A DNA stretch of 64,000 nt from Rhizophagus irregularis (lineage: Eukaryota). Under the pieces are notes generated by a model that was given only the letters and a program-made list of their open reading frames with translations, did not search any database and had not been told where the DNA came from. Made by a program: the position numbers and the translations under genes. Location of the stretch: assembly GCF_026210795.1 (NCBI RefSeq), contig NC_089433.1:1116001-1180000 (forward strand). The letters run 5' to 3'. Of the stretch, positions 4,134-60,157 are shown in pieces; within the stretch, counting starts at the first letter, position 1, and the number at the start of each line of letters is the position of its first letter.

Positions 4134-4426
4134 ATTAAAATTATAATTAGTAGCGAGTAATAAATTTAGTTTCGGAGTGTCGACAGTGTCGTACACGAAG
4201 TATTGACGTAATTGTTACGTTTTTCATTGTGATCATCATCTATATAGTATTCCTAATTTGGTTAATTCTTCTGGAATTTTAATTCCGTCGATATTTTATT
4301 TAATTGGAACTTATTCAATAAACTTCCTTTTGCCGATTAATTTTTTAATACCTTGAAAGAATATATTTTCTAATATCCCTATTAAAAAGATTTTTTTAGA
4401 AATATTTTTAATTTTTTAGACAAAAA

Positions 4427-12791: not shown

Positions 12792-13495
12792 TATAGTGCT
12801 AAAATCATCAAACTATGTCAAGAATCCGTGAGGGCTTTAATAAGAATGCAATGCATTAGAATAATTATATTAGAAACATAAAGAAACATAAAGTTAAAAT
12901 ATTGTACATCGCAGTATATTATTCAAAACTACAACTATAAAATTTCTATTCGTAAAAAATCTTAATAACCTTAAAGTTCGATAATTTATTATCCGAAATC
13001 ACGTGTAACCGACAAATAAATCCGGCTACCGTCGTTCTGCGGAGAAAGTATGATCACATGTCTGGCGTGTCATTAAAATCGTCTAAAAAACTACGTGATA
13101 TACATAATCACTGATAAAATAAGCTTTAACTATATATATAATTACACTTCCTAACTAAGCTACTTCGTACAAAAAGGATAGGTAAGAATCGGGAGGGAAC
13201 GTGACTAAGCTTGTCCTACGTTATTAATTAAACGCATACCGTAAATCATAAATTTCATGATTTTTTGGTATGATCATCATAAAAAAATATTCTTAATTTG
13301 GTCTGTCCGGAATTTAATTCCGGTGGTTTTATTGTAATGAGCTTTTTTAGTTTTCAAAGTTTTTAAACTTTTTTCTTTGTAATAAAATATTTCAATATTG
13401 CTAAAAACAATACTAAAATAATAACTCGATTGTGAAAAAGTTTTTTTAACCCATTTTTCCATTTTCATCGTTTTTTTTTTAACAACTGATAAAGT

Positions 13496-15639: not shown

Positions 15640-18600
15640 ATAACCGTTCACAAGACATAAGCAAAAGTTATGATCAAGTAAACCGTCCCTTCTCAAACTA
15701 TCCCTTAAACGCCTGCACATCCCGGCTAACATTATAACAATCCTTATTAATCTTTTTACTAATCGTTTTAACCAAATAATTTTACAAGATAAACTTAGTA
15801 CATCTTTCAAAGTACTACAAGGAATCGACTAAGGTGAAGTAGTTAGTCCAATTTTATGGATATGATATTACGATCTGATGTTCACCAAAATTAAAGAATC
15901 AAGAGATCAAACATCTCCAAACTACGGCCAACAAAATTAATCTGATCATCAACTAACCTTTAACGCAGCGGCGGTGGGCTACCTGGACAACACTAGCTGC
16001 AACTAGCCTAAAAAATTTAGAACACAATCTACAAACCACAAAAGAATTCTATGAATTCGCTAATATAAGGCCACACAAATTCAATTTTTCGGTTCACGTA
16101 ACATTGAAATTTAAAATCAACCCGGGGACCCGGGGTTTATTGTTTATTAGTAAAAAAAGTTTATATATAAAATCGTGACATTTGATTGGTTGACTTTTAA
16201 AAGGGAGGAATTTATTTTCGCTCTAGAAGTTCTCAGCCGCGTGATAAACTTACCCGCTAATAAAATTACGTCCTGATCAAATGATAAATTTTTTATATAT
16301 AAACTTTTTTTTATTGAAATTTGAAAAAGTGACCCGGCCGGGTGAAGTGAACCGAAAATTCGAATTTGTGTGGCCTAACCATAAACCACGACAAATACGA
16401 AATCTTAACTAACGACTCAACAGTTAGTAGGTCATCTAGTAATGAACCCTAGGAATCTATATTAACGCTTTTCACACGGAAGGCCCATCGATTAAAAAAA
16501 TGCGTCAAATAGTTATAATGAAAAACAAAAAAATCACACATGAACATTTGTTTTATGTTATCAACAAAGTCATAATACCTAAATTAGAATATACAAATCA
16601 ATTCGTTATTTAACAGAAAGTCAATGTAATATTATTTTGTCAACCCCTAAAAACCTTTTTTAAACGCCATCCATAACAACATCATTAACAACAAACTATT
16701 TCACAACATTAATAACTTTTACTACAACCAATTTTATGCACATTGTGCTATTACTAATGTTCTTTTTAATTCGAGATAATTTAAAGTAATAGGGCTACAG
16801 AAAATTTTACATACACAATACGAATATTGGTTACCTAACTTCCCTACACCAGAAGACCTAACGTCTTTACCAAAAGGCAAATCATCTTTATTGATCAAAG
16901 AAGTTAGTATTATATAACAAATTTCACATCACCTTTCTTCCGCACAATGATGTAACCATCGTAGGAGGAAATACTCCCATCATCCATCACATACCTAACC
17001 TACAACCTAATGGCTTAACATCTTTACATAGATGGCGGATATTTGGAAATCATGGAAATACTTACGCACCTTACTGACAATAATTTTAAAGAACGTAAAC
17101 CAAACTGGTTCCAAAATTGGAAACAGACGGAACTTTATCCAACTACAACAGAAGACTGATTTCACCACTTACTTCCTCTTCGATTAACAAATTATACTGC
17201 AAAACCCCTAAAATCCTTTCATCTTACTATTATAGACCTAACAACGAGACCAAAACTTGGGATCCGACTAACAATAACGAAATATACGGCAAAACGGTGG
17301 AACAGGTTAACAACCAGTTGGCTCAATTACATATAGAGAACATTACATACCTCACATCGACACCGACGAATCTTTATCGACTTTGACACCTCGTATACAT
17401 ACGCCAATATTACGCCCATGTAAGGGCTGTCGATTACACTCGCCGTATTAAAGACCTAAATGCGTCGTGATGACGTGCACAGAGCAAGTGAATGAAGTGA
17501 TTAAATTTTCAATTCATGCAAAACAATAAAAGCCAAAAGTGAACATGAAACCACTAAAAATAGTGTATTCCCCATTTCTAGTCTAATCAATTTGAGAACT
17601 TTCATACAAACCTACTCAGTCACGTGACTCATCTACACCTCCGGACCAAACTGACTCCGGACAAAATCAGTTCCCAAGATAATTAACTAACACAATTCAA
17701 CAAATTAAGAATAGCTTGATCGGAGATCAAGATAGCATTTTATTACTTATCAATCTAGCATCTCAATTACAACACCAAACAAATTTAACTTTTTATACTG
17801 ATGGATCGTTACGTACGCGTTCGCCTACACAACCTAATACCTTCTTGGGTGGAAGGCTTACCGCCATAACTTACAAAGGCAGAACTACATTCACCCCATC
17901 GCCGAGCAAGGCAGAAGGAATTGCCATTCTTACAGCAATACTTATTTGCTCGTCTAATAGTACGGTTGACATTTACACAGATTCACAAAACGCCATCTCT
18001 ACATACTATCGTATTTCAAACAAATTAACTTCAGAACGAAGGATTTTAAAAATTAGCAATCATCTCATTTGGAGACTCATTCACCATCTCATAACGTTCA
18101 ATAACATTCAACTCACCTTTCATAAAGTAAAAGCACACTCAGAAATTCACTTTAACGAACTAGCTGATACCTTAACGAAAGAAGATCAAGATATAAACCC
18201 TTCATTATTAACCCGAAAGTTTTACCTACTCCCTGATGACGCCTATATGGGATTCCATAGGTAGGATCTATTGATAGGGACATTAGAAAATTTGGATTTA
18301 GAATCACAGAAGCGTACACACTCAAAACACTTTCTTACACAACAAACCCTTGCAACTACTATTTAATGAACATCGCCTTACAGATATTTAAGAGAGCATG
18401 GCAGAATAACAATGATACCACCGACATCTGCAGCGCCAACTAAAGCAAGAAAACGCTTTCAAAATTAAATGTTTGAACCTATATTACCGTGTAGAAACAT
18501 ATTACAAAAACATTATCCTCTTACCTTGTCTATTATGCAAGACACACAACGACACTAACCAACACCTAGTTTTCTGTCCTCCCTTAATACCACAAATCGA

Positions 18601-19857: not shown

Positions 19858-20832
19858 AAATTACAATGAATTGATTTGTAGACGATATTAAGGTAAGAAG
19901 TACAATGTGTCAAATTCAATTTATCAAATATTATAAATTTTGTAAATCTATTATTACTATCACATGTATATAAACTGATTAAAATATAAATTAAAACTAT
20001 TTTATAACTTTTCAAATTTTGTATGTTTAATGAATATTTAATTATGTAATATTTTATTTCGTTTCATCATATCTTGTTCTTCGCAAATGTAAAAATTTTA
20101 TTTAAAAATGATCTTAACTCCTATTTTTTTTTTCTCTAATTCTATATTACTAACCATTATTCAAACTTTCATGCTTGTTTGATAATTTGATACTAGTGAT
20201 TAGCTGAACTACTAAGTACGTTCGGTTCACTTTTTAGAATCATTCATTTCACGGACAATCAATTCACCGAAAACACGCGGTGTGATGTATAAACATAATG
20301 GCCGGAGTTATGACATAATGTGGGCCAGGTGTTTAATTGTCACATAATATCGGTGAATTGATTTTCGTTAATACGTCTGTCGGTAAAATGAAATGCATAT
20401 TATTTAGGGGTCAATCCGGACGATTCAAAGAATAGTAAATTAATTCGGTGAATAAGAAATCGAATAGAATGGTAAAATTATTCAATGAATAAGGAGACCA
20501 AAATTGTTTTTTGGGGGAAAGGGGGTCGGACCAATTCAAAATTGTAAAATTTGGAGAAAATTGAAAGGTTTTTATATTAAAACTACAATTAAATCTTGGC
20601 AAAAAACTTCCGTGATCACGTGATATAGTATTGTTCTGTGAAACATTGTTTGATCTACAAATTAATTATGTTCCTAATTTGGTTAATTCTGCCGGGAACA
20701 TAATTCCGCCGATGTTTTATTTGATTAAAAGTTTTTCCGCGATAATATTCTTCAATTATAAAAGATCTTGTAGAAAAACATTTGTAGAAAAATATTTATG
20801 AGTTTTTTTTTCCATTTTTTTATTGACTAAGA

Positions 20833-22332
20833 ATGTTTAAACTTAACGAAGATATCCTTTTCTTAGTAATTGAAAAATTAAAAGATGATTCAAAATCCCT
20901 CTTTTCATGTTTAATGGTAAATAAACTTTGGTGTGAAAATACCATTCCGATCTTATGGAGAAATCCTTGGAGTTATGATATTGATTATTATAATGATAAT
21001 AATTATTTATTTACCATTATTATTTCTTATTTATCCGATGATATTAAAGAATTTCTAATTAGACAAGGAATTCAATTACCATCTCCATCAATTTCACCCC
21101 AATCGCTTTCATTTGATTATTTATCGTTCTGTAAAAGTATAAATATAATTATTATAAATATTATAATTTCAATTAAAACTTCTTTAATTTATAATCAATT
21201 TCTTTTACAACAAGAATTTTATAAATTATTTATGAAAAAATGTTCAGAGTTAATATATTTGAATATGAAATCTATTAAGCATCAAATATATTATTTTCCA
21301 GATGCTAATAATCGCCTTGAAACATTATATGAATTAGAATGTGATACATCAATTGATTCCTCATATTATTATGGATTGGCACGTATTTGTAAATGTATAC
21401 AAAGAATCATCATTTTTAATGTAAATCCAAAAGATAATCATGGAATTGCTAAATTAATTGAAGTTCAAAAGAATTTAAAGTATTTTGAATGGAATGATGA
21501 TTTTAAAAATATAGATTTTACATATGATCCTTATGAAGAAATCCTTTTTGAATTAGAAAAAAAGACAAATATTCTTAAACATTTAAAAATATTCTTACAT
21601 TATGTTGATAATTTTGAACGTTCATTATTATTATTACAAAATGTACTTATGAAACTTAATGGATTAAAAACATTAATGGGTGATTTTAGTATTTTTGGAG
21701 AACATGAAATGAAAATGTTATACTTTAATAATCTTGAAATCCTTCACATTGATTGTATTACATTAATTGAAGCTTCAATCATAATTGAAAATAGTGGAGG
21801 AAAACTTAAGGAAGTTTCAATAAAACCTTATGATTTTGTATATTATGAAGATAATTTTAGTGAAGACACTTTGATTTTTATTCGTAAGATTTATCAAAAA
21901 TGTCCTTTAATTGAAGTTTTATCACTTGCTTTTTCACTTTCAAAAGATCATTTTATTGAATTCGAAAATTTATTAAAAATTTGTCAAAATTTAAAATCTT
22001 TATTATTATTCACATCAAATTTTCATATACGTGAGACTGAAGAAAAAATTTTAGAAAGTGGTGAAGAAATTTTAAAAATATTAATTAGTTCTGCATCAAA
22101 TAATTTAAGAGAAATTAGATTTTTTAATAATTTCAAATTTTCTTTGGGAACTTTGGAAAATTTCTTAGAAAATTGGAGAGGTCGACCTGCACTTTCTATA
22201 CTTACTTCTAGTACTATTTATGAAGAGGAAGATTATAAAAATTTGATTGATGATTATAAAAATGATGGAGTGATTAAAACTTTTAAATATGAATCTGTTA
22301 TAAATGTAGAAAATATGAACTTTAGGATATGA
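20833..22332 (+). CDS. F-box domain / RNI-like LRR protein, 499 aa
   Basis: Paralog most similar by eye to 13496-14986 (YELECDTSIDS, CPLIEVLSLAFS). Confidence 0.85.
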   Translation: MFKLNEDILFLVIEKLKDDSKSLFSCLMVNKLWCENTIPILWRNPWSYDIDYYNDNNYLFTIIISYLSDDIKEFLIRQGIQLPSPSISPQSLSFDYLSFCKSINIIIINIIISIKTSLIYNQFLLQQEFYKLFMKKCSELIYLNMKSIKHQIYYFPDANNRLETLYELECDTSIDSSYYYGLARICKCIQRIIIFNVNPKDNHGIAKLIEVQKNLKYFEWNDDFKNIDFTYDPYEEILFELEKKTNILKHLKIFLHYVDNFERSLLLLQNVLMKLNGLKTLMGDFSIFGEHEMKMLYFNNLEILHIDCITLIEASIIIENSGGKLKEVSIKPYDFVYYEDNFSEDTLIFIRKIYQKCPLIEVLSLAFSLSKDHFIEFENLLKICQNLKSLLLFTSNFHIRETEEKILESGEEILKILISSASNNLREIRFFNNFKFSLGTLENFLENWRGRPALSILTSSTIYEEEDYKNLIDDYKNDGVIKTFKYESVINVENMNFRI

Positions 22333-29922: not shown

Positions 29923-32246
29923 TTAATAATCTTCAATCATACAATCAAACCCTTGAGACTCTACTTGAACTAAAATTTCAGTAAGTTTGCGACTTGTAAA
30001 ATGTGCTTGTGGATGAGATTGGATAATAGAAGTGTTTACTTGTTTTTGCACTAAAGATTTATTTGCTTCTACAAATTCAAGCATATCATTTGTTAACTGA
30101 TCATCAATATTAAGTAATCTATATTTATAATTTTCATCCCTGTTTACTTCATAATATTTATTAATACATCTAATCCATTCAGATATAATATTTTCAAGCA
30201 TTATTATAGTTGGTCTATTGGAAGGATTTAAATCCCAACATTTCTTCATTAAATTTGTATAACATTTTGGAGTATTTTTCGTAATTTTAGGACGTTTCCC
30301 TTCATAAACACTCAAGATAAAGTGATGATCATGTGCTTCATAGTTAAATGGAGGGATACCTGATGTAAATTCCCACATTATCATTGAAAGGCTATAAATA
30401 TCACTTGCTGAAGAGTATGGTTTTTTTCTTAATATTTCAGGCGCCATATAAGGTAAAACTCCATAAATTTCATTAATTTTTTTATCAGAATCTTGTAAAT
30501 CACTTATAGGTTTGCTAATCCTAAATCAATAATAAATAACTCATTGTAATTATCTGACATTAAAATATTACCATCATGAAAATCACCATGAGTTAAATTT
30601 GATTCATGTATTACTTTAAGTCCTAATATAATTTTTTTCAATAATCGTAACTTATCTTGCCATTTGAATTTAACTATATCAGGTAAACATTTTCTCAAAC
30701 TACCTTTTTTTGCATAACTCATTACTATTATATAATTTAAGTTATTTGGATCTTGGGTGAATCCAAAGAACTGTATAAATTTTGAAAATGATTTTTTCTG
30801 ACAATTATAATGATATTTCCACTATGTAAATAACAAAAATTATTAAACTTTTGTACAAAGAAATAAAATATGCTACTAAATATAAATACTATACCTCATT
30901 CAGAAATTCATTATTTAAACTTGATGAATTATTAAGTGATTTAAGAATAACCTCATAATATGTTTGCCTATTCCATTGTTGTTTATCAAAATTCCAACTA
31001 AAAATAGGTCCATCTGACCAGATAGCTTTATTAATTTCACTAAATCCTCCTTTAGCATAATAATCAATACTTGATAAATTATTGTAAGGTATCCACTCTA
31101 AAATTTCATAACTATTTTTAGCATTTAGCTGTGCTTCTTGAACAAATTCATCAATAAATTTATTTTTACTAGTCCACTTGAAAAATCTTGTTGAAATTGC
31201 TTAGTATTACATTGTTGGCACCATTGGTAATCAGTATTTAGTTGCTTGCATTCATTACAAAATTCATTTTTAGAACTTGTTTTGTTACTTTCTATTGCTA
31301 TTTGGTACCAATAAAAGGCCCTTTCTAAATTCCTTTTTGTTCCTTCTCCATTTCTATAACATGCAACTAAATTAAAAATTGCATCAATATGACTTTTTTT
31401 TGCTGCTTTTTGATACCAATGAAAGGCTTTTTCTAAATTCTTTTCTGTTCCTTTTCCATTTTTATAAAAATTGGCTAAATCAAACATTGCAATAATATGA
31501 TCTTTTTCTGCTGCTTTTTGATACCAATAAAAGGCTTTTTCAAAATTCTTTTCTGTTCTTTCTCCATTTCTATAAAATATGGCTAACTTAAACATTACAT
31601 TAATTTGACCTTTTTCTGCTGCTTTTTGACACCAATGAAAAGCTTTTTCTAAATTCTTTTTTGTTCCTTTTCCATAATAATAGTGAATGACTAAATTAAA
31701 CATTGCAATAATATGCTCTTTTTCTGCTGCTTTTTGATACCAATGAAAGGCTTTTTCAAAATTCTTTTCTATTCCTTCTCCATGTTTATAACGCACAGCT
31801 AAACTATACATTGCATCAATTTGACCTTTTTCTGCTGCTTTTTGACACCAATAAAAGGCTTTTTCAAAATTCTTTTCTATTCCTTCTCCATGTTTATAAT
31901 GCACAGCTAAATTATACATTGCATTAATTTGACCTTTTTCTGCTGCTTTTTGACACCAATAAAAGGCTTTTTCTAAACTTTTTTCTGTTCCTTCTCCATT
32001 TCTATAACATGTAGATAAATATAACATTGCATTAATATGATCATTTGCTGCTGTTTTTTGATACAAATAAAAGGCCTTTTCTAAATTCTTTTCTGTTCCT
32101 TTTCCATTCTTATAACAGTTCGCTAAACTAAACATTGCTTTTTTATCACCATTTTCTGCTAATTTTTCTAAAGAATCAATACATTCTTTACACCAAAGTT
32201 CTTCAGTAAAGGGCCTATTGCAATATAAACAATTTTTGGTGTTCAT
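29923..32246 (-). pseudogene. Sel1-repeat (8x) + tyrosine-kinase-like protein kinase with two 1-nt frameshifts (pseudogene or assembly indels)
   Basis: Eight 36-aa Sel1 repeats between two CxxC...WCxxC motifs; kinase motifs GGFS, VILK, HGDFHDGN, DLG, MAPE, DIYS; intron 30822-30894 (FLNE|WKYH); frameshifts near 31180 and 30515. Confidence 0.85.
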
Positions 32247-32678
32247 TGTATCAGTATCTTTATCTGGTTATTTTAGAAGTTTGTTTTACTGAAAAAAAAA
32301 TTTTTTCTAGACAAAATTTTTTAAAACAAATAATATTCATGAATGAATCAAAGTAGAAAAGAATAATTGTTTCGGGCCGTATTTCCCGATGCACTCAATG
32401 AACTGATCTTCATTGAGAAATTCCAACTATGGGGTCGTCTAAAACGGGTAGTTTTGTCCAACATTACAATTTGACAACCGTGATGTAGATCAATGCATCA
32501 GAAAAGATATATCCCAAAAACGAGTTTACCACACTAAATTGTGTGAGTTGTGTATCTTATATATAAAACAAAATAAAGTTAAATAAAAATAAAATAATTT
32601 TTAAGAGAAACTTTGAAAAATATCCTCCGCGTAGCGCCAAAAAGATAGGAAAACTACGAAGTAGAAATAAGTAGATCG

Positions 32679-33499: not shown

Positions 33500-35120
33500 G
33501 AAACTCTCGCCAATAAGTGCAAGTGGTTCTAAAAATCATGAAAGTTTAACTAATGACTTTATAAATTATGAAATTCCTGATAAATTCTCCTTTAATAATC
33601 GACAAGTAAATGGTGATAATGGTTCTTGTCAGATTATTTCTGAACCAGATCATACGTTTCTTAAAAGTAATGATTTTGAAAACAAATATTTGGAAATTTC
33701 TAATTATATTCTTATTGAATCAAAACAAGGAAGAATACCTCGATGGTACACGTTTCTCAAAGACAAAATCACTCTCCAATCTCTCCAATCCAATACTGGA
33801 CGCCTCAACATTGATCTAGGCCACAACTTAATTCAAAATTCACGGGTCCAGCGTCCCCGTCCTCCGCCTGTACAATCTGATCATATTACGCACAAAGGAA
33901 AAGCGAGTGGTTTGCAACCTGGGCCAACTCTACTTCAGACGCTATATATCAAACTATTAACTTCAACACACTTTGCCAACACTGCTCCCGTTATGTATCT
34001 TGAACATTGGATACCGGTTCCTGGAATCAATACTTCTAATAATAACAATCTTACACCTAGATCTCCCAATATCATTTCCCCTATTATATTGGCAACCAAA
34101 CTCCGAAATGCATCTTCTTGAAAATGACGCATCAAGCAGTTATTCAAGATTCTCCCGTATCGACCGCTTACGTAATGATCTCCAAACCTTACCGAAAAAT
34201 ATTCAAATATTAAATCATCATCACACACATTATAGAATTTTAACATATAATGACTACCTTATTCAACGTAATCTAACACCGTTACCTCAAATACTTCACC
34301 ACACACCTGTTAACTCACAACTCATAACAGCTCAGAACCACGCTTTGATTAATAGATTGATCAACGAACGTGAAGTAGAGAACAACTTTGCGCAGCTACT
34401 AAAATAATTTCAATTCCGTAGAATTAATTCTACATAGATGGTTCGTTTCAAAAGGATATATCCGCCAACGAATTTCACATGGGATACGGTTGGACCACAT
34501 CGAATCTTTATAATTTCGATGTCACTTATAATTTATAAAGGTGCTATTGAATTCCTCTTCCTCGACAAAAGCCGAAATTATGGCCATTTTAACCGCACTC
34601 ATGGTCTATACACCCGCTGCTACAGTAATTATACACACTGACTTACAAGCTGCGATAGATGGATATAACAAATCATCTACAGAGTATCTCACCACGACGC
34701 TTTAACAAAATTAATAACACATCCTTATGGGCAGCCATACATTTTATAATTAAAACCTTACACTCACCTTCACTTTCGACAAAATCTAAGCTCATTCTGA
34801 CATTACGTTCAATAATATTACTAACACTTTAGCAAAAACGGGGCGCTTTGAATCCACACCCTCCTCTATCATACACAATTACATACCAACGCAGACGGTT
34901 ACAGTGATCTGGGATAAGATTGTTATTGGTGACCTTTTTCTTTCACCGTCTGTCCTGGCTTGATCGGAGTCCAGGATAGTTTTTTCTTTTTTTTCTATTT
35001 CCAGTAAGGGTCCGCTCCAGAGATTTCATATTGTTGGTTTGGGTAAAGTTTTATAATGGTTTCCGATACTTTTATTCGTGATGTGATTTTCATTGTAATT
35101 CTCTTTACTATACATAAAAT
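33500..35120 (+). mobile_element. Second non-LTR retrotransposon relic (RNase H region)
   Basis: FYIDGS (~34428), KAEIMAILTAL (~34568), TDLQAAIDG and FDKI*AHS in shifting frames; same C/A-rich composition as the 15.6-19.4 kb element. Confidence 0.7.
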
Positions 35121-38463: not shown

Positions 38464-41400
38464 GGGTGAATTTATTCCTCACCCCGGGTGAGATTTAATA
38501 TTCTTCACCCCTAAAAATTTTTTTATTTTTTGTTATGTATTTATATGCGTTTTATAATATATTATATATAAAAAAAAATAAAGTTATATTTATTGTATGC
38601 CAAATATATACATATCGTTGATCAATCTTTATTGTTTGATTTCGCCAAATAAACGTAACAATTGAATTGTATCGCACTACTACTAAACAAAATACAAAAT
38701 AATCTTCGCTATAAACATGTGATTATGTAAAGTTCATTATTGTTTTGAACAAGTATTACGATAATGACCGTTTTCTCCACATAAACCACACTTACGACCT
38801 TTATCACCAGAAATTGCTTGTTCACTCCCATTTTTGACTTTATTTGAACCTGATTTTTCAAAAGATGATTTTAACCGCTTCGTTGCGGGTCTACCCTTTG
38901 GTTGATGCTTTAACGGATCCATTATTTGATTAGAATCAACCAATACTCCCCTTGTATTATGAAAAACTCGATTATCATTTGCAATCATTTTTCTTCTTAC
39001 TAAATCTTCTTGTTGTCTAATTGATTCCGCTTGAATTAATTGAGCTTCCCTTCTTTTGTTATATTCTCTTATAAACTGAATTAGTTCTTCATCATCATCT
39101 TGAATCGCAAATTGAATTGCCTTTTTGGCTTCACCCATTAAAGTACCAAATTTCAATTGTTTTTGTGATATTTGCCTGGAATAGCTCTCTGAAAGATCAT
39201 TTACAGTATATTTTCGCGTAAATTCTAAAGTGATTTGTGTATTATTTTGATCATTTTGGCAACTATTCATTATTATTTCACTAGAAGAGATATCACTTGA
39301 AGTGATATATTCATCTTTATACCAACGCTTGGGAATCAACACCAAATGAAAATATGCTTTAGGAGTTTCAACAAACACTTTAAAAAAATGTCTGCATATA
39401 ATACCATGCGTTACAAGCATGAAACAAGTGCATAAATATTCTCCGGTATTAAGCAAAATCACATGTTGATAACACTTCGGAAAATTATACCGAGAGACCT
39501 TCCAAATTTCTAAAATATCGTCTGAGTTAACCATTGAAATCAAGGATTTTAAGTCAAGTTCCCGATCCTCATCAGCTTCAATAGGTGTTTCAATAGAATC
39601 ATCTACTTCTTTATCAAAAAAAGGTTCAAATGAATCGTCATCTGATGCTGAAATTTCGGAAAATGGTACTTGATGTGTACGATAACATACAGATTGGCAC
39701 ATCTGCTTATAATGTGCATCATGAATTGGTTGAGTGAGATACTTTTTCATGGTAATATCAATGTCTTTAAAAAACGTTTGAATAACAAAGGGTTGTGTAT
39801 ACTGTAATGTTGAGGATTTCCAAATTGAATAACGATTGTTAATCAACTCAAATTCTAGCCGATTTTCAATTGATTCTTGAACTTGTGAAAGAAAAAAACT
39901 TGACTGTACAGCCTTCTGTATCAACGCATTTTCTGATTCTACGCGTTGTGTGGATTGTGTTCCCGCCGTGAAATGCCTTGATGTAAAACACTTTACCCAC
40001 GTATGTTTTCTATTTAGTAGCATTGTAGTTATATATTTTTTCCCTGCTTCATATTTTTCAACTATACCTGCAGACCGGCGTTCAAATACACTTTCACAAT
40101 GAGAACGTTGGATTGCCCTAAAATCTTTGAGAAACTCTTGATAAAGAGGTGATCCTAAGCATGAACGAAGATTTTTTGGAAGATTTTGGTAAAGATGGTA
40201 TAAACATTGCATATGATGAGTTTCTGGAAATACTGTAGAAATGGCTGCAATCATGGCAGGATCGGCATCAGTAACAAATGTCAATGGAGGAATTTCACAT
40301 GCTTCAAGACAACATCGAAGCAACCATTCATAAGATTCTTGTTTTTCATCTTGTATGAAGGCTTGGGCCGCCAACCTGCTCTTGTTATAATTATCAATTA
40401 AAATAAAGAGGCTTAATGGGTAGTTATACTTGTTAGTTCGCGCAGTATTGTCATGGATAATAATGTCATAAAATTTAGACCATCTTTCACGTTGTTCTGG
40501 TGACATCCAGAAAATACCAATTAGCCGGTTACTTGTATCATCTATTAATGGCTTTACAAACCATGCAGGATCATCTGCTTGCAATTCAAGAAGTCTCATT
40601 AATAAAGATGCTGCATCTCCTAAATTATTAAGGCCTTTTTCTTGTTTGATCTTTTGAATTGCATTTCCCAAGTCTTGGGTAAGAAATACACGATCAGGAT
40701 ACTTTGGTTGAAGAAGATTCCTAATTGTTCCTGCATCACATCGGCCATGCACAACATAAAATTCTATCTGTTCCATAATTTCTTCAGTAAAATTTTTGTA
40801 ACAAGTGGAGAATTTTATGGTATCGGTGAGAATCTCATGATTGTGTTCGTTATTAAATAACGTTACAGTTACTATGGGTGAATTTATTCGTCTATTAACA
40901 TTCATTTGCCACATACAGCCCTGTTTTTTGGTTCCTTTACTTTTTTCTTTACCTAATGTTGGCCTTAAAAGCTTCTCAGTATACCTTCCTCCTAAATCAC
41001 ACTTAAATACCCTTTTTCTACAAGTACCATCCGGAAATTTTTCACTTTTATGCTTAAAGACAGCAAAATTATTCTGAAGAGCGTACTGTTCTATAAAATG
41101 TACTGCAATTTCCATGGAATGAAACCTTGTTCCATTCTCAATCTCGATTAGAGTATTAATTAACGGAAAGCCACCAACATAATCTTTAAGTTCGGCACCT
41201 AATACACTTTTAACAACATATTCCTCACTATTATCATCATGATTGGTGGGTTCTGTAAAAGGTGAAACCTCATATAACATGATTAACCAAGCACAAAAAG
41301 CAAAGAACATGCAAGAGCAAATACTATTACGGTGCGTATTATGTAGCATGCATGTGAAAAACGCGTGACTGTGGCTTATAATTTATACTGTTTATTTTAT

Positions 41401-41516: not shown

Positions 41517-44024
41517 TTTTTTTATTTATATTTTTTTTTGTAAATTTCAAATTTCATTTAAACATATTTCTTTTGGACACAATCCTAAAAATCATAAACC
41601 CGAAACCACATTATCCCTGACACTTATTATCCTTTTTTAAGATTTTTTTTTAAAAATTTAGTAATGAGATAACATTAAACATTTTTAATTAATTTGATAA
41701 TGATCAACAAATGATCGGAAAATTTCGATAAATACCCGTTGCAAATGAGTTTGTTTAAATAGAAAAATTTAGTATTATAATGTAATACTAAGTAAATTAA
41801 AGATGGTTATAGTAGTTTTTTTGTTTCCATTTAATAAAGTGAATATTTTTAAAAATTATTTATCTATATTATTAATATCATATTTCATTAAATTATCCGG
41901 TTTTTAATATCAGGTGACTCGGTTAGGTTGACTCGTACTGTTTTTTTTTATTAAACAAATAAAAATCTTTTTTTTTTAATAAAAACGAAAAACAACTGAT
42001 TTTTTTTACTAAATTATAAAAAAATCAGTTTCTTTCTTTTCATTTTAATAATCGTTCTTTTTTTTTATTAAAAAAATACTAAATTTTTTTATAAACTAAT
42101 TACGGAAATATGGTTACTCACGGAAGCTAAATATTTATTGTAGAAAAAAATATGTAACGTAATTTTAATTAAACAAATATAATTTTATATACTTAAGCCA
42201 AATATAAATTTGGTTCTTAATAGAGAATTGTTTGTAAAAAAGTTTGATCCTGTAGATAAAGGAGGTTTAGTTTTCTATGAAAATTATTTGCAAAATGATA
42301 TCGAAAATTATCCGATTTTTTTGATTTTCTTTATTACTAAATAAGTCATACATTTTGTTAATTTATTTCATTTATTCAAAAGATTATAATCCATTTCTTA
42401 AACGAAATAATACTTTAATGGCAATAGTAAACATTATATGACTTGAAGAGATATGCAATGGTCATCCGCCATTAAAAAAATCCGGCGCTGAGGCGTTGGG
42501 TCCACAAAGCGCTTGAATTTTAAATATTTCTCGCGATTATCCATTAAAGCTAGAGAAAATTTCAAATATAAAAGATCTTAAGTTTTCGACCTTCTTACTT
42601 TTATTTGTAATCGAAAGAGCTATTTTAAACAACATATAAAAAATTGACTCAGATATTTATTCTCTTTTTATTAAATTTTTCATTATTAAATAGTTATTGG
42701 ATACTAGATATCGGTCGAACACTGGTCGAACACAATACTGCGGTGACCAATAGGAATTAATGCTACTAATAACGATTTAATATAATCCCGCATATTCCTA
42801 ATCGACTGAACAACAACAAAATATTATTAAATTTCCTACCCAAGTTGAAAATATTATAAACCATTTTTTTAATGTTTCTTAATTTATTAAAATTTTAATT
42901 CTAGTAAATATGATATGACAGAATTTAGCAATAGCTAAATTTTAATATGCCTACATTTCATTACTATTTGATATTCGAATGATAAACATTTGTTTGTCAA
43001 AGTTAACCTTTATTATTACGATCGTACAAGTTTAGGTGTTATGCATAAATGTATATGATATACATGCATAAACTTTATTTTTACTAGTATCTACTCTTAG
43101 CGCTCTAGTATGTTCGTGGAGAACGAGGCATATTTACTCAAGTATGAAGAATAAGACTAATTAAAAATTGTAATATAATTAAGAAAAATCGTTATTATTA
43201 GTTTATAATAAAAAAAAAATCACACTGGTCCTATCAAATTCACAATAACTGCGCAATTCCTAAAAATAATTTAAAAAATCAAAATTAATATTTAATATTT
43301 TACCGCTAAACTATTTTGGTATATTTACGTAGTAATAGTCGTACGAAAAGAAGTAAAGAAGCCCGCGTCCTTTTTCATGATACATTATTAAGTAATATAT
43401 TTATAATCCATTTTATTATTTTATTGAAAGAAAAAAATAGATTATATAATTAAATGCAATGAAAAATACAAAGACTACTTGCGATTGATTAAGCATCATA
43501 TGATTTGAAGCGTAATACTTTCTTAACCACTGTTTAAATAACACGTACATACTAGGACAAATTAGGAAATAAAGGCACATATGACTTGTACTATCAATAA
43601 ACATTTGTAATTAATGCTTTTGTTGAAGATCCTTTAAAAAAGGGGAACTTTCTCCGATTTGATAATCTTGATTTAATCATCTGACTGACTGGTTTTTGTC
43701 TCTTAATTTAGTATAAAAAAATTTTTATTGTTTTGTTTCCAACTTTGTTACTTTTTTTTTCTTTCTCTTAAAAAAAATGTATATATGATTTTCATTATCA
43801 TTACCTATCAAATATATCAAATATGTAAATATTTACGTTTAAAAAAAAAAGTTCTACCAAGTCGTTTCATATTAAAGTTTTTAGTATGATCGACAAAAGT
43901 AGTAAATAGATTAGAGATAACGTTCATTTATGAAATTAATTATATAAACCTCACTTTTATCAAAAAATGTTAATTTTTGGCATGACCCTTTTATCCTATT
44001 TTAAATTATATTATTGAAATATTA

Positions 44025-47000
44025 ATGAAAACACTCGTTCGTCCTTCATATAGTAAGGATTTTTTAGACCGCGGGACATTAAACGGGGGATATTTTCACA
44101 ATATTGGAAATATTAATAATATCCAACGACACGATGATAGATATTCGATTAAGGCTGAAAGCTTAGATATGGGCGTTTATTTACAAGAAGATACTTTTGT
44201 CTCTGAAATTAAATATACTAAATTAGTTTATTTCATCATTGATTATCAAAAACGTAATATAAAGGTAGAATTTGATGTTCATGGTAAATTATATTCATTA
44301 GAAAATGAATTCAATAATATTGAAGGTGAAATTTATGTTGAACAACAAAGACCTTATTGGTCTATTACCATCGCAAACAAATTTCCGCCAAGGTATTCAA
44401 TACGTGATGATAACAAACGTTCTTTTAAACGAATGACGAGAATACAAAGTTTAAGAAAAAGTAATGAACCACTTCAACCACATATGTCTGATAATAGTGA
44501 ACAATTAGGCAAATGGGTAGTTTTTAGAATATCCTTTAACAATCAAGCTAATAATCAATTTTATCGTTTTATAAATATGATTGATAAAGCTAGAGATTAT
44601 TCATTAGTATCTAAATTTAATAAACCATTAAAAATAGTAGCTGGGTCAACTTTAAACAAATATGTGAACCGTTCAAATTTAGATTTTGACATCCTATATA
44701 TGATCGAATGTAACCTTTCTTTTAATTACATTCACGATTATAATTTAAATGAAGATTTTTTTTCCTTTTTATCCGTTCAACCAAAAGACGCTGTAATTTA
44801 TGTTTTGGAAAAAATATTTGAAGAGAAAAATCGTATATACGATCCTTTATTATATTTACGTTCAGAGATCAAGAAACGTATTAATGTTTCTGTCAAATTT
44901 AATGAAGTACCTAATCATTGTGCAATGATGCGTAAGGTAGTAGTAACTCCTACTACTATGTATATGTTACCTCCAACTATGGAAACTTCTAATCGAGTGA
45001 TTCGTAATTATGAATATAAAAAAGATAATTTCTTACGAGTACATTTTTCTGATGAAGCATCAAATCCAATCGGTTCATCAAGTGGAAATTTTAATGATAC
45101 TTTTAATGATGCTTTATATAATAGGATTTATTATACATTAAATAATGGTATTAAAATTGGAAATGTACATTATGAATTTTTGGCCTTTTCTTCAAGTCAA
45201 TTGAGAGATCATTCTTGTTGGTTTTTCGCATCAACTGAGGATTTAACCGCAAATAATATAAGAAAGTGGATGGGTGATTTCTCGGATATCAAAACTGTTG
45301 CAAAATATGCTGCACGTATGGGTCAATGTTTTTCAAGTACTAGAGTGATTCAATATGTTCCAGTTAGTGATATTAAAGAAATTCCCGATATAATTAGAAA
45401 TGGGTATACATTTTCTGATGGTATAGGAAAAATATCTTTTTCATTAGCAGAAGTAATTGCAAAAGAATTAGATTTAAAAAGAATTCCAAGTGCTTTTCAA
45501 TTTAGAATGGCGGGATATAAAGGAGTTTTATGTCAATCACGTTATTTGAGAGCAAATCAAGTTCAAGTTCGTCCAAGTCAACATAAATTTAAATCAAATC
45601 ATAATATATTGGAAATTGTTAGATGTTCATCTTACCTTCCATCTTATCTTAATAGGCAAGCCATTACATTATTATCAGCATTAGGAATACCAGATGATGT
45701 ATTCATTCGAATGAAGGATCAACAAGTCAGTGAATTGAGTAGAATTTTTGAAAGTGATCTTTTAGCGTTAAATGTTTTACAACAAAATATTGATGAATAT
45801 GAAACTTCACAATCACTTATAGAATTAGTAAAAGCTGGATTCCTACAATCAAAAGATCCTTACTTAATTAATTTAATTTCTTTATTTCGTATCAAGATGT
45901 TACAAGATCTTAAAAAGAAAGCAAAAATTCGTGTGGGTAGAGGAGCATTTTTAATGGGTGTATTAGATGAAACGAAAACTTTAAAAGATAATGAAGTGTA
46001 TTGTTGTATATCTGATCCTTGTAATCCATCTAAAAGAAAAGTAATTACTGGAACTTGTATTGTATACCGTAACCCTTGTTTTCATCCTGGAGACATACGA
46101 ATCGTTAAAGCTGTATATTGTAATACTTTGAGCAATCTGATGGATGTATTGGTATTTCCTTCAGTTGGATATCGTGATATTCCAAATCAATGTAGTGGTG
46201 GTGATCTAGACGGTGATGATTTTACGTATGTACAATAATTAAACTATGTTAAATTTATATTAATTATTAAAAACAAAATCTAACTATTCCTCTTTTTAGA
46301 ATAATTTATGACGAACATCTAATCCCAAGTGAAGCGCATGAACCCATGAATTATAAATCTAAAAAACCAAAACCGGTCGATCATGTAACTATGGAAAGCA
46401 TTAAAGCATTTTTTGTAAATTATGTATTTTCTGATCAACTTGGTAAGATCGCCAATGCTCATTTGGCAAAAGCGGATTCTTTTCCAAATGGCGCACTCCA
46501 TGGACAATGTAAAGCTCTCGCTCATTTACACTCGGATGCTGTAGATTTTCCAAAAACGGGAATACCGGCAATAGTTCCACAGGAACTTCGTGTAGAACGC
46601 TTTCCAGATTTTATGGAAAAACATGATAAACTAAGTTACGAATCTGAAAAAGTTCTGGGTATTTTATATCGTTCTATTAAAGTAGTAGACTATGAACGAT
46701 ATACTAGTTTGAATTTCGATAAAAGGTTATTATATGTTGAAGGATATGAAAAATATTTAAATAATGCATTAAGACTTAAACGTGCATATGATGCAGAGAT
46801 AAAAGGGGTCATGAATCAATTTGGAATTATGACCGAATTTGAAGTAGTTAGTGGATACATTATTAATACAATTACCAAAATTGATAAGAAAAAACCAAGA
46901 AATGTAATAAAATCTGTAATGGATACAATAATTCCAATTAGAAAAAGTTACCGAAAAAAATTTGAGGAAGAGTTTTATGAAGAAGGAACTAAAATTATTC

Positions 47001-47146
47001 CATCAACAGCTTCTGATCAAATGAAATCAAAAGCCGTTGCTTGGTACTGTGTAACGTATGGATTGAAGGATGAAGATATGATATCTTTTCCTTGGATTGT
47101 GTACGACATTTTATGTGAAATTGTTAAAAATAGTAAGATTAAATGA
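44025..47146 (+). CDS. Eukaryotic RNAi-type RNA-dependent RNA polymerase (exons 44025-46225 and 46300-47146, about 1015 aa)
   Basis: Motifs KYAARMGQCFS, FSDGIG, AFQFRMAGYKG, RNPCFHPGD, catalytic DLDGD, AVDFPKTG. A 74-nt intron 46226-46299 (GTATGT...CTAAC...TAG) joins DGDDFT|IIYDEHL in frame. Confidence 0.95.
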
Positions 47147-54326: not shown

Positions 54327-56002
54327 TTTAAAAAAAAAAACAAACAAACAAACAAACAAACACGATACGGCTCTATAACAGAGTGCAATCTATCCTAAAA
54401 CAAATAAAACTAAACTGCACCTAACTAAAATACTATCTACTAGTGATTACTATGCAGGGAAAAAAAACGCGAGAGAAAATTTGTTATAAAACTGAAAATT
54501 CAGACGGAGCCCAACAGCCCCACGTCCATTAGCAATTATCCCAACTTCTTCCCCCATCAAGTTTATCCCTATAAAAAAAAAGAAAAAATTAGTTATAGTA
54601 TGCTAACCCTATCTAGATTCTATAATATTATTTCGTTTGCATCTAAAAAATTTTTTATCGGTAAATTTTTTAACGTGAAATCACGTGACTTCGATTTTAA
54701 GATGCAAAAATCCGTCATTTAATATCCGTCCTCGCCTCAATTTATCCTTGCTTCTTCACTTTCTTTGTTACTTCTTCCTTCTTCACTTCTCTCTTCTGTG
54801 GTGACTCCAAGATTGGTCGTTTCTCTCCGATTTCTTTTTCGCCTGTCTTGCGATTTTCGTCCTTTAGTCTTTTTTTGAAATCATCATTAAGTGTGGTGTG
54901 TTCTTTAATACTTATTGTTTCTTTACTTCTATTGTTATTATAATTATATACTTACATTATATTTTCAATTTACTAGAAAAAATTTTTTGTTAGTTCAACA
55001 TCTTTTGTTTTATTATTATTAGTTGTTACTTGATACATTATTTGTTTTATCCCTATTTCTAGAAAAAGTCTAATAAATAATTATTTTTATGGGTATTATT
55101 CCAAAAAACTTGTATATATGATCAACTAGTAATAAAAATTTTTATTGGATACAAATTAAAAAATCAATTATCAAATGTGAGGTATTAAGATTGTTAAGAA
55201 GATTATTTACAAGACAAAGATAACCTTCTGAATTGAATGGACAAATGTAAAATTAATTGCTTTTTTGTCACTTAGATATGCTGGATATTTTCCATATACA
55301 TCTTTTGAAAAAAAGAAATTCATGATAAACTCGTAAATGACTACTGAAATAATTTTACAAATGCTGTAAACAAAAAAGTTCTAAAAAATATTTTACGATT
55401 TGACTATTGGACTGCCTGTTAGTGCCTATTATAAAGTTAAAATAATTATGTATAATTATATATAATGTAGTCTTAATAATATAATTTCTTAAATGTATAA
55501 ATGATATTTTTTTTAATTAATATTAAGAATAAAATTAACAATATAAATAAAATACAATTAGCCATTGAAGTGAATATAAAAAATTTTACATTATTTATTT
55601 TAATTTTTTATTTTGATAATTTATACTTAACATTTGGAAAAGTTAAAAAAAAAAGATTTATTTAAATTACAAACTAAGAAATTTGTAAAGTATTTACTAC
55701 TCTAGTCTTAATGTTTAAATAATTCTAAAAAAAGAGAATACATATGAATAAAATATAAAAAAAACGGAATTATTTAAATTACAAACTAAGAATATTGTAA
55801 AATATTTTACTAGTACTCTAGCCTTGGTGTTTAAATAAATCTAAACAACAATTTCTGTTAAATGCATGATATCAAATATCACATAAAAAAACTATAAATT
55901 CTTATAAAAACACGATTATTTTTTATCTGTTTTAAATAATTAAATAAATAAAATTAATTTCACATAAATAATTTGCAAAATTAATTCTTTTTATATACTA
56001 TA

Positions 56003-59000
56003 TTACATACCTAATGACTTCAAATTAACTATACAATCATCCAAATCTTTACTTACTAGCATTTCATTCACTTTTACACTATCTTGTGATTCTTCATTTT
56101 CTTCATTCACTTTTCCACTAGTAGATTGACTTCTACTTTTAAGAATTTCATTTAACTGTTTACTAGTAAAATCATGTAAACGACTTGTATAATATGCATG
56201 TGGATGAGATTCAGTAGCAAGATTATTGTTTTGCCCAACTGGTGCATTTATAAATTCCATAATGTTGCTTTTTAATTCTTCACTGACTTCATAAGGACGG
56301 AAAATCCAATTCCTAATAATTTTTAATACTTCTCTAGAAGATGGCCTTTTTAATGGGTTTTCATCCCAACACCTTTTCATCAAATCTACATAACATTGTG
56401 GAATATTTTCAATAATTTCAGGACGTTCATCTTCACAAATGCCTAAACTAAGTTGAAGATCATGTGCTCTATTATTAAATGGTGGTATTCCAGATGTAAA
56501 TTCCCACATAATCATAGAAAAACTATATATATCACTAGCTGGAGTATAAGGTTTGCCTCTTAAAACTTCAGGAGCCATAAATGGTATGACACCATGAATA
56601 TCATACTTTTTCAAAAACGATTTTACAGATTGACATAATCCTAAATCACTAATATAAATCTTATAGACATCCACACCATAATCATGATTTAAAATATTAC
56701 CATCATGAAAATCACAATGAATAAGATTTTTTTCATGTATCTTATCAAGTCCAGAAATAATTTCGTACAACATATATAATTTTTGATTCCAATTATTTTT
56801 GGCTATACTTATTAAATTTTCTCTTAAATTACCTTTATTTGCATGATCCATTACTACCATATATTTTGAAGTATTTGGATCTTTTGTAAATCCATAAAAA
56901 TCTATAATATTGAAATCAGATACAACACTTGCATGATGTTTCCACTATAAAAAGTAATAATAGTTTATTAATATAAATAAATTTAATTTAAATTAAAAAT
57001 AGAAAATAATATACTATCATACTTCTTTCAAAAATTCATTTAAATTTTCATTTAAATTCTTGTGACATTTAAAAATTACTTCAACCTCTTCATCTTTATC
57101 TCTGTTATTCCTTAACCAAATAGCACTGTATATAGTACCAAATCCTCCTTCATTAAGATATTCAACATTTTTAAATTTGTCATAAGGAATCCATCTTAAT
57201 CCTTCTTTAATAATAAAATCATCTATAATTGCATTTCCACTTTTCCCAAATCTATAAATTTAAATAATTAAAATTATATTATAGATTGTATTGTAATTTA
57301 TACAAAATAAATTATTACTTACTCTAAAATTTAAATTAGGGATTTAATGAAATATAAGTCTTAATTTTTAGATAAATACATATAATAACCTATGATTTAC
57401 AACTTACCAACTAAAGTAACAGATATTGATATTTTTCAAATAAAAGAATTCAGTTAACAAATAAATATTATATAAAACATATAACAATAGAGATACTTAC
57501 AAACTAGATCATAAATAATTTTTAAATAAAGAGATTAGATAATTTAAATTATATCATTATATGTAAATATTATAACAATAAGTAACAATAGAATTAAATA
57601 AATAACTTACTCTCTATATTATTTAATAATTTTTTAAATAAAGAAATTAGATAGTTTAAATTATATGTAAATATTAAAACAATAAGTAACAATAGAATTA
57701 AATAAATAACTTACCATCTATAAAATAATTTTTTAAATAAAGAAATTAGATAGTTTAAATTATATGTAAATATTATAACATTAAGTAATAATAGAATTAA
57801 ATAAATAACTTACACCCTATATCATTTAATAATTTTTTAAATAAAGAAATTAGATAGTTTAAATTATATGTAAATATTATAACAATAAGTGACATTAGAA
57901 TTAAATAAATAACTTACCATCTATAAAATAATTTTTTAAATAAAGAAATTAGATAGTTTAAATTATATGTAAATATTATAACAATAAGTAATAATAGAAT
58001 TAAATAAATAACTTACACCCTATATCATTTAATAATTTTTTAAATAAAGAAATTAGATAGTTTAAATTATATGTAAATATTATAACAATAAGTAATAATA
58101 GAATTAAATAAATAACTTACACCCTATATCATTTAATAATTTTTTAAATAAAGAAATTAAATAATTTAAATTATATGTAAATATTATAACAATAAGTAAT
58201 AATAGAATTAAATAAATAACTTACTCTCTATATTAATTTAATAAATAAAGAAATTAGATAGTTTAAATTATATGTAAATATTATAACAATAAGTAATAAT
58301 AGAATTAAATAAATAAATCATGACTTACCAACTAAATTAAATTACAAAATAATTTTTTAAATAAAGAAATTAGATAGTTTAAATTATATGTAAATATTAA
58401 AACAATAAGTAACAATAGAATTAAATAAATAACTTACCATCTATAAAATAATTTTTTAAATAAAGAAATTAGATAGTTTAAATTATATGTAAATATTATA
58501 ACAATAAGTAATAATAGAATTAAATAAATAACTTACACCCTATATCATTTAATAATTTTTTAAATAAAGAAATTAGATAGTTTAAATTATATGTAAATAT
58601 TATAACAATAAGTAATAATAGAATTAAATAAATAACTTACACCCTATATCATTTAATAATTTTTTAAATAAAGAAATTAAATAATTTAAATTATATGTAA
58701 ATATTATAACAATAAGTAATAATAGAATTAAATAAATAACTTACTCTCTATATTAATTTAATAAATAAAGAAATTAGATAGTTTAAATTATATGTAAATA
58801 TTATAACAATAAGTAATAATAGAATTAAATAAATAACTTACTATCTATAAATAATTTAATAAATAAAGAAATTAGATAGTTTAAATTATATGTAAATATT
58901 ATAACAATAAGTAATAATAGAATTAAATAAATAACTTACTCTCTATATTAATTTAATAAATAAAGAAATTAGATAGTTTAAATTATATGTAAATATTATA

Positions 59001-60157
59001 ACAATAAGTAATAATAGAATTAAATAAATAAATCATGACTTACCAACTAAATTAAATTACAAAATAATTTTTTAAATAAAGAAATTAGATAGTTTAAATT
59101 ATATAAATTATATGTAAATATTATAACAATAAGTAATAATAGAATTAAATAAATAACTTACACCCTATATCATTTAATAATTTTTTAAATAAAGAAATTA
59201 GATAGTTTAAATTATATGTAAACATGAATATTATAACAATAAGTAATAATAGAATTAAATAAATAACTTACCATCTATTTAAATAAAGAATTTAGTTAGT
59301 TTAAATTATATGTAAATATTATAACAATAAGTAATAATAGAATTAAAATAAATAACTTACTATCTATAAATAATTTTTTAAATAAAGAATTTAGTTAGTT
59401 TAAATTATATAAATAATAATAAAAAAACTAGATATCTATAACTTACACCCTAGTGTTGTTAATTAATTATTAGTTAAGTATAAATATAATATAAAATTAT
59501 TTACTGTAAATTAAATATATCACTTACAAACTAGTTGTTTAAATTAAGAATATAATTAGTTGAGTTATATAAAATATTAAACAAATAAATATGATATTAT
59601 AACTTACCTTCTGTAATACAATAATTATTAAATAGTTAATTAAATAAAGAATTTAGTTATTTGAATATTATGTAAAATAAACAAAGTAAAGAATTAAAAT
59701 TTAAATAACTAATAACTTACTGACTATAGTATTATTAATCATTAAATGAATTATTTAATTACATAAAATGTAATAAAAATGATAAGTAAATCCATTATTA
59801 TTCAATTATAAGATAACCTATTAACTTACAATCTATATTTGTATATTATATAAGGTGTAATTATAGATAGTATTTAAATGCATTTACAAATAAAAATTTA
59901 ATATTTTAGCATGTTTAATATACCTATAGATTCCTTGGTACAACTTTTTTCAAATTCTTCAAAGCCACTTTCTTTGAATTCCTCGAATTCCTCAGAGCCA
60001 CTTCCTTCAAATTCTTCAGTACTGCTTCCTTCAAGTTCAATATTACCAGAAACTAGTTTTATTATATTATAAATTTGTTTAAAATATTAGAATTCTAATT
60101 GTATTAAATGTTTATATTATATATATGATTATTACCCTTATCATTATTAAGAGCCAT
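56003..60157 (-). CDS. Tyrosine-kinase-like protein kinase with a micro-exon-encoded N-terminal segment (30 exons, 465 aa predicted)
   Basis: Exons 60157-60136 (MALNNDK), 60052-59924 (acidic), 25 three-nt exons, a 1-nt exon at 57323, 57251-57023 (FGKSGNAIIDDFI...WIPY...EGGFG...VIFK) and 56944-56003 (HCDFHDGN, DLG, MAPE, DIYS). Total 1398 nt, open throughout. The kinase exons are certain; the 5' model is inferred from splice signals. Confidence 0.8.
57323..59832 (-). repeat. Tandem intron + micro-exon array (units about 80-118 bp)
   Basis: Exons in transcript order (lowest coordinate given): ATT 59830, TCA 59721, AAG 59608, TTT 59528, GGT 59447, ATA 59361, ATG 59272, GGT 59162, TTG 59044, AGA 58940, ATA 58842, AGA 58745, GGT 58641, GGT 58537, ATG 58438, TTG 58329, AGA 58225, GGT 58121, GGT 58017, ATG 57918, GGT 57814, ATG 57715, AGA 57611, TTT 57501, TTG 57408, A 57323. 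Each is YAG-exon-GTAAGT. Confidence 0.88.

Follow-up and report, generated by a model that had tools for sequence, protein, structure and literature searches.

Exons of a single nucleotide have been described in Arabidopsis APC11 (PMC4674806), plant VPS55 (PMC8831610), Fusarium CYP621A (PMC12940212), and Coprinopsis (PMC12230235), as far as the available text of these reports goes. In Coprinopsis cinerea, the accessible part of the report gives 13 exons of 1 nt, 57 of 2 nt, and 27 of 3 nt in 26 genes (PMC12230235). With 13 such exons in one fungus, the initial annotation of the locus studied here, which called one-nucleotide exons very rare, was overstated on this point. Exons of one codon are also described, and the nank genes of Tuber melanosporum are reported to contain tens of alternatively spliced codon-sized microexons (PMC10197012, PMC4986451, PMC3689799, citing Iotti 2012, PMID 22289772, in the excerpts available). 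For Rhizophagus and related fungi, no report of a micro-exon feature was found among the matches listed, by title or abstract start and mainly in openly accessible papers. The main text of the 2022 assembly preprint gave 0 matches for “micro” and for “kinase.”

The locus described here lies on the minus strand of a 64-kb window of Rhizophagus irregularis DNA (the whole stretch analysed, 64,000 nt), which is AT-rich eukaryotic DNA. In a gene for a PF07714 kinase, 25 units of the form YAG-NNN-GTAAGT are followed by a terminal unit, TTTTAG-A-GTAAGT. We consider it probable, at about 0.85, that the A at 57323 is a real, family-wide, and constitutively spliced one-nucleotide exon, which joins a phase-1 array of predicted triplet exons to a phase-2 kinase exon.

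The kinase gene and its probable one-base exon

The kinase part of the gene (56003-57251, minus strand) is 100% identical to the R. irregularis protein P0001 (GET57824.1), which matches PF07714 with 136.5 bits against a cut-off of 23.1 (E 1.3e-39); kinase activity is predicted from this Pfam match. Upstream, exon 2 is 66-76% identical to the N-termini of the kinases P0050, P0032, and P0039, at weak E-values of 0.025-0.94, and these matches to annotated paralog N-termini tie it to this kinase family. No signal peptide is evident by eye on the kinase product. The initial annotation held that the one-base exon lends support to the whole gene model (Table 1), and the model has since gained from outside the locus, since exons 1 and 2 match annotated paralog N-termini and both paralog RNA and a second record keep the unit. 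At the other end of the gene, a donor-like GTATGT site stands at 56005-56012 (minus strand), just before the stop, and the proteins P0121 and P0123 end in other residues; a last small intron and exon near 56010 are possible.

Table 1. Features of the kinase locus, by position in the window
Feature	Position	Strand	Basis and remarks
Exon 1 (ATG, 22 nt, ends in phase 1)	60136..60157	-	Sequence; N-terminus matches P0050, P0039
Exon 2 (129 nt, acidic Glu/Ser/Gly low-complexity, ends in phase 1)	59924..60052	-	Sequence
Array of 25 predicted 3-nt exons (YAG-NNN-GTAAGT)	57408..59832	-	Motif scan; introns 77-115 nt
TTG, the last 3-nt exon	57408..57410	-	TTG also directly before A in paralog read consensus
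84-nt intron, upstream side of 1-nt exon	57324..57407	-	Sequence; kept in a few paralog reads
CTAAT candidate branch motif	57335..57339	-	Sequence; differs among paralogs
Single-nucleotide exon A	57323..57323	-	Sequence; paralog RNA; metagenome match L001
71-nt intron, 1-nt exon to kinase exon	57252..57322	-	Sequence; RNA depth drop at 57251
First kinase exon (229 nt, phase 2 entry)	57023..57251	-	Gly-rich loop and beta-3 Lys by eye
In-frame alternative acceptor (AG 57224-57223)	57222..57224	-	Within kinase exon; fits phase 1; unused in read rows shown
Second kinase exon	56003..56944	-	Catalytic loop, DLG, APE

At 57323, an AG acceptor and a GT donor flank a single base between two introns of ordinary length. 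The acceptor TTTTAG ends at 57324 and the donor GTAAGT begins at 57322 on the minus strand, so the unit, both intron lengths, and the presence of CTAAT are as the initial annotation gave them. In the 64-kb window, YAG-N-GTAAGT occurs twice against 0.49 expected, and at least two occurrences were reached in 9 of 100 shuffles. This count is unremarkable, so the one-base unit is telling by its place alone, the expectation within the 156-nt gap that holds 57323 being 0.0005. The other occurrence, at 52520, adjoins a tandem repeat without an open reading frame and was set aside as chance. The CTAAT, at 57339-57335, is where it had been proposed as a branch motif, but it is altered in the metagenome match L001 and coincides with variant rows at 57335-57341 in the data set X15; the altered L001 sequence rules it out as a conserved branch motif.

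The base has a role in the reading frame. Exon 1 leaves the frame in phase 1, exon 2 and the 25 triplets preserve that phase, and the kinase exon at 57251 must be entered in phase 2. The A converts one into the other as the middle base of a Glu codon, giving a frame of 465 amino acids when included and a stop at amino acid 84 when skipped. Retention of either flanking intron leads to an early stop, which for the 84-nt intron comes at the fourth codon. The frame arithmetic thus bears out the phase role first assigned to the base. To call it obligatory, as the only way of keeping the frame, was too strong, because acceptors at 57222, 57204, and 57201 each fit phase 1 and leave the kinase frame open as well. 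Inclusion is favoured because of the reads and not because of the arithmetic.

The window holds other genes and fragments. On the minus strand at 29923-32267, an open reading frame with eight Sel1 repeats adjoins a PF07714 kinase frame, the two probably forming one gene, in which a variable module of another type would stand at the N-terminus of a related kinase. Four similar plus-strand frames of about 500 amino acids lie at 1203-2726, 4412-5899, 13493-14986, and 20827-22332; the one that was scanned had no Pfam match, and their N-termini are presumably F-box-like, as judged by eye. Also present are a MULE transposase with a FAR1 domain (38737-41382, minus), an RNA-dependent RNA polymerase (PF05183) in two frames, the Pfam scan being of the first (43986-47146, plus), and an RNase H domain fragment, probably of retroelement origin (17683-18264, plus).

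RNA reads and relatives at the junction

Three poly(A) raw-read runs (X22, X23, and X24), from two samples of one study and matched to R. irregularis at the level of the species label and not the strain, were aligned to 55900-57550, and X23 and X24 again to 57195-57430; about one-fourth of each run was covered. On the shorter stretch, 218 of 278 reads in X23 and 268 of 360 in X24 part from the genome precisely behind 57251, with TTG-A directly ahead of the kinase exon in their consensus. Another 20 (X23) and 34 (X24) reads do so behind 57250 and have TTG-A-G, which is likewise in frame. The longer alignment gives the same start of the kinase exon in 188 (X22), 248 (X23), and 288 (X24) reads, and RNA depth across 57251 falls from about 260-330 to 1-2. 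Two X12 contigs, which come from a separate study and whose RNA status is a guess, agree with the TTG-A junction (agreement 0.98).

An mRNA that skips the base after TTG is expected to match the G of the acceptor and so to end at 57252. No such form is among the rows listed, the smallest of which have 6 reads in X23 and 7 in X24; 23 further rows fall outside this listing. Judging by the depth of the bin 57251-57258, skip reads can number no more than about 5 (X23) or 10 (X24). Bin depth and smallest row together bound skipping after TTG at about 2-3% of junction reads in these two runs. Because the loose-end consensus is drawn from many paralogs at once (agreement 0.58-0.59), it would hide minor forms, among them a 5-nt exon with its donor GT at 57318 and skipping after triplets whose last base is not G. 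A skipped mRNA could also be lost to nonsense-mediated decay.

The source of the reads matters for what they say. Reads at least 99% alike to the 57323 copy number 2 of 278 (X23) and 3 of 360 (X24) on 57195-57430, and 5 of 1598, 9 of 1828, and 12 of 1971 (X22, X23, X24) on 55900-57550. By subtraction, the gene's own bases at 57205 and 57211 are carried by 0 reads in X23 and 2 in X24. With so few matches, the junction evidence comes almost entirely from paralog reads. Set as included against skipped forms, the way in which the initial annotation framed the question, the reads make inclusion near-universal in the paralogs (the 218 and 268 reads above), and the junction of the 57323 copy itself is not seen in any read. 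This copy would be spliced like its paralogs.

A few partly spliced reads bear on the order of events. Two X23 reads join 57251 through AG-A to the upstream intron, which places the donor after A in use, and in two X24 reads a triplet is joined to A while the sequence on either side is still unspliced. Each of these pairs may represent one fragment, and the X24 pair could derive from a paralog with a 4-nt exon. In X23, the 84-nt intron is covered by up to 11 reads and the 71-nt intron by 1, and 6 reads begin in spliced sequence and continue through TTG into an 84-nt intron that was retained. These reads fit a stepwise removal of the introns, of the kind proposed for APC11 (PMC4674806, in the text available). 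By intron definition, the two short introns would be removed sequentially, the downstream 71-nt intron probably first more often to judge from these few reads, and the A would thereby come to head a long exon while the 84-nt intron is still in place. The same three runs show opposite-strand joints at 56440-56632 and 56601-56684 (6-32 reads each), which are probably paralog or library effects.

Relatives of the locus keep the unit at the level of DNA as well. The sole metagenome match, L001 (1 of 1), carries TTTTAG-A-GTAAGT letter for letter beside an intron of similar length, with 161 of 178 alignment columns invariant; upstream of the kinase exon it extends for about 120 nt and thus covers the one-base unit and not the array. 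Two X15 contigs, aligned at 57342, have a paralogous AG-G-GTAAGT, in which the one-base exon is G; this version would turn the Glu codon into Gly. A look for the AG-N-GT unit in relatives, which the initial annotation had proposed for paralogous kinases, has found it with A in L001 and with G in two X15 contigs.

Annotated homologs hold more indirect traces. The survey took in 192 proteins from the best 120 matches of each search, 79 of which reach the start of the kinase exon. In 7 of the 79, from R. irregularis and R. clarus, the annotated sequence ahead of the kinase exon ends in N-L-E or I-L-E, as expected of a predictor that reads through into the donor after A. It ends there in S-K or S-N in 21 of the 79, which is consistent with a misread AG-A-GTAA unit, and 7 of these 21 (including R. 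diaphanus) have leaders that are rich in Gly, Ile, Leu, and Met by eye, as the triplets would be in phase 0. The remaining homologs fall into those assigned to read-through of the last intron (7 of 79), partial sequences (8 of 79), and others (36 of 79). The identical unit in L001, the G variant in X15, and these annotation traces point together to conservation of the one-nucleotide exon, and from the protein sequences the exon architecture looks subfamily-wide and mis-modelled. None of the 79 annotated homologs (best 120 matches per search) has the N-terminal junction backed by the reads, so the subfamily appears mis-annotated and its variable region overlooked.

The predicted array of codon-sized exons

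Inside the window, YAG-NNN-GTAAGT occurs 27 times, 25 of them in the array, against 0.57 expected, a count reached in 0 of 100 shuffles. All 25 units have both splice motifs intact around exactly 3 nt. The two isolated occurrences, at 16248-16259 and 34641-34652 (minus), stand beside the chance expectation of 0.57, and the window also has a 2-nt unit at 22207 and a 0-nt unit at 28016. Paralog reads continue from the kinase exon into intron-free sequence ending in the TTG unit. The predicted array of 25 codon-sized exons is more unusual than the one-nucleotide exon that closes it.

The core of the array is a tandem repeat with a period of about 104 bp. Unit identity goes up to 100%, with four identical unit pairs, three of them spaced 520 nt apart. 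The last 15 intron bases are 91% identical in 29 pairs of units with the same triplet and 60% identical in 124 other pairs. Triplets thus travel together with their own acceptor region, and this, along with the identical pairs, argues for block duplication and the reshuffling of a few unit types.

Every codon in the array takes its first base from the end of one triplet and its other two from the start of the following one. The array and its junction codons encode 26 residues, 10 of them aromatic, between the acidic spacer and a conserved pre-kinase segment. A stop-free triplet order in the phase used came up in 2.7% of 20,000 shuffles, which is weakly unusual, the units not being independent; in phase 0 no stop is possible. 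Since every exon of the array equals one codon in phase 1, the frame would not shift when a unit is gained, lost, or moved. The one-nucleotide exon would then be a fixed phase adaptor and the array the variable part. Units of about 100 bp would be gained, lost, and reordered by unequal crossover or conversion, rewriting the peptide in front of the kinase, and skipping of triplets by alternative splicing, if it occurs, would rewrite it likewise. By analogy, the array segment may have a role in recognition.

Alternative readings and comparison with known systems

The initial annotation saw in the base a potential on/off switch for the kinase, skipped in some conditions to give a truncated, decay-prone mRNA. 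The stops that follow skipping and intron retention would suit such a switch, some paralog reads do keep the 84-nt intron, and in plant VPS55 the one-nucleotide exon is present in some forms and absent from others (PMC8831610, in the accessible text). In the two samples of one study, few conditions for a regulated event, X23 and X24 list no skip row and the bound of about 2-3% leaves no substantial, condition-dependent skipping of the kind a poison exon would show; the switch is without support here and we hold it improbable. A reading in which the frame is restored without the A, through the acceptor at 57222 (or 57204 or 57201) or through a GAG acceptor within an AGA unit, has in its favour that these downstream AGs leave the kinase frame open, that four AGA units contain a second AG, and that the annotations P0035 and P0070 read as though the equivalent of 57222 were the acceptor. 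Read depth changes little between 57219 and 57250 (271 to 259 in X23, 356 to 329 in X24), with no step at 57222, and no loose-end row near 57222 is among those shown, though about 90-95% of the reads retain that AG. A frame restored in this way is very improbable, and the cDNA use of another frame-restoring acceptor, which the initial annotation had named as evidence against itself, did not appear in those rows.

Several predictions have the triplets in phase 0 and the last unit as a 5-nt exon with the donor GT at 57318. The S-K and S-N ends with their Gly-, Ile-, Leu-, and Met-rich leaders and the stop-free phase 0 speak for this, but exon 2 ends in phase 1, and in the read consensus a single base, instead of five, separates TTG from the kinase exon, which contradicts it as the main form; there is hardly any chance that it holds. 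An assembly error, such as slippage that took two bases from an AGA triplet, is the faintest prospect of all. AGA triplets do occur in the array, and no exact DNA piece bridges 57323 among the 8 X15 pieces shown, but L001 has the same letters, X15 lists neither another letter at 57304-57334 nor an indel at 57304-57336 (variants below 1% of summed depth go unlisted), and a triplet at 57323 would break the frame. Somewhat more room, though still a good deal short of likely, should be given to the idea that the family splices as described but that the 57323 copy is silent or decaying, the size of its array reflecting repeat slippage or assembly and not function. The few reads at least 99% alike and the matching of the runs by species label are in keeping with it, as are array units of up to 100% identity; 25 intact units, an open frame of 465 amino acids, and the kinase motifs are not, and the one-nucleotide exon at the level of the family would be unaffected.

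Beyond the constitutive one-nucleotide exon, the preferred reading, there is a wider proposal that we offer tentatively and would expect to fail rather than hold as it stands. Arbuscular mycorrhizal fungi may own a residue-by-residue diversity generator, in which reshuffled and combinatorially spliced arrays produce a hypervariable, aromatic-rich recognition segment across a kinase subfamily. It would be locked in frame by the conserved one-nucleotide exon, independent of truffle nank, and hidden by mis-modelled predictions. Rhizophagus has a large kinase expansion, with 1156 matches among 1924 candidates. If the triplets are also skipped combinatorially, this would be a nank-like diversification device on a kinase in a model mycorrhizal fungus, and, if true, a role of the array in partner or non-self recognition becomes testable. 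In addition, a one-nucleotide exon conserved in many paralogs, with partly spliced reads, offers a natural series on the splicing order of 1-3-nt exons.

Among the single exons, the one in CYP621A is alike in being a fungal one-nucleotide middle codon base that links a phase-1 end to a phase-2 start and is conserved, missed by annotation, and backed by reads, whereas it is a lone exon within a conserved P450 motif of orthologs and the Rhizophagus one ends a tandem array in paralogs as A or G (PMC12940212, as far as its text is available). APC11 likewise has a constitutive A required for the frame, with sequential removal of two introns proposed, and its exon is proven by mutation, whereas the Rhizophagus exon is known from sequence and paralog reads (PMC4674806). 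In the available parts of their reports, APC11 and VPS55 are one- or two-copy genes for which no array is described (PMC4674806, PMC8831610). Coprinopsis has similar fungal exons of 1-3 nt, and the 25 predicted 3-nt exons of one Rhizophagus gene come close to the total of 3-nt exons in that whole annotated genome, as given in the accessible text (PMC12230235). The micro-exon genes (MEG) of Schistosoma share the many tiny exons, the variable proteins, and the host-associated organism, but most of their exons measure 15 bp, their introns reach 5 kb, and their products are secreted, according to the text at hand (PMC10526429), against 3 nt, about 100 nt, and a kinase in Rhizophagus.

The rarer feature of the locus is the codon-sized array, and its precedent, as far as the nank reports are available, is in Tuber. 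Both belong to an expanded gene family of a mycorrhizal fungus with tens of tandem 3-bp exons, described in Tuber as a diversification device, and here there are 25 predicted units, with read-throughs and phase-0 traces in paralogs. The present case differs in coming from an arbuscular mycorrhizal fungus, in a PF07714 kinase instead of an NLR, in the N-terminal place of the array, and in the closing one-nucleotide exon. Splicing of the nank exons is alternative by report, whereas the Rhizophagus array is known here from predicted exons. Pfam matches in P0001 are to kinase families only, with no NACHT or ankyrin domain found, so the protein may work like nank and is not a member. What sets this locus apart is a probable one-nucleotide exon together with a predicted array of 25 codon-sized exons, on an expanded kinase subfamily.
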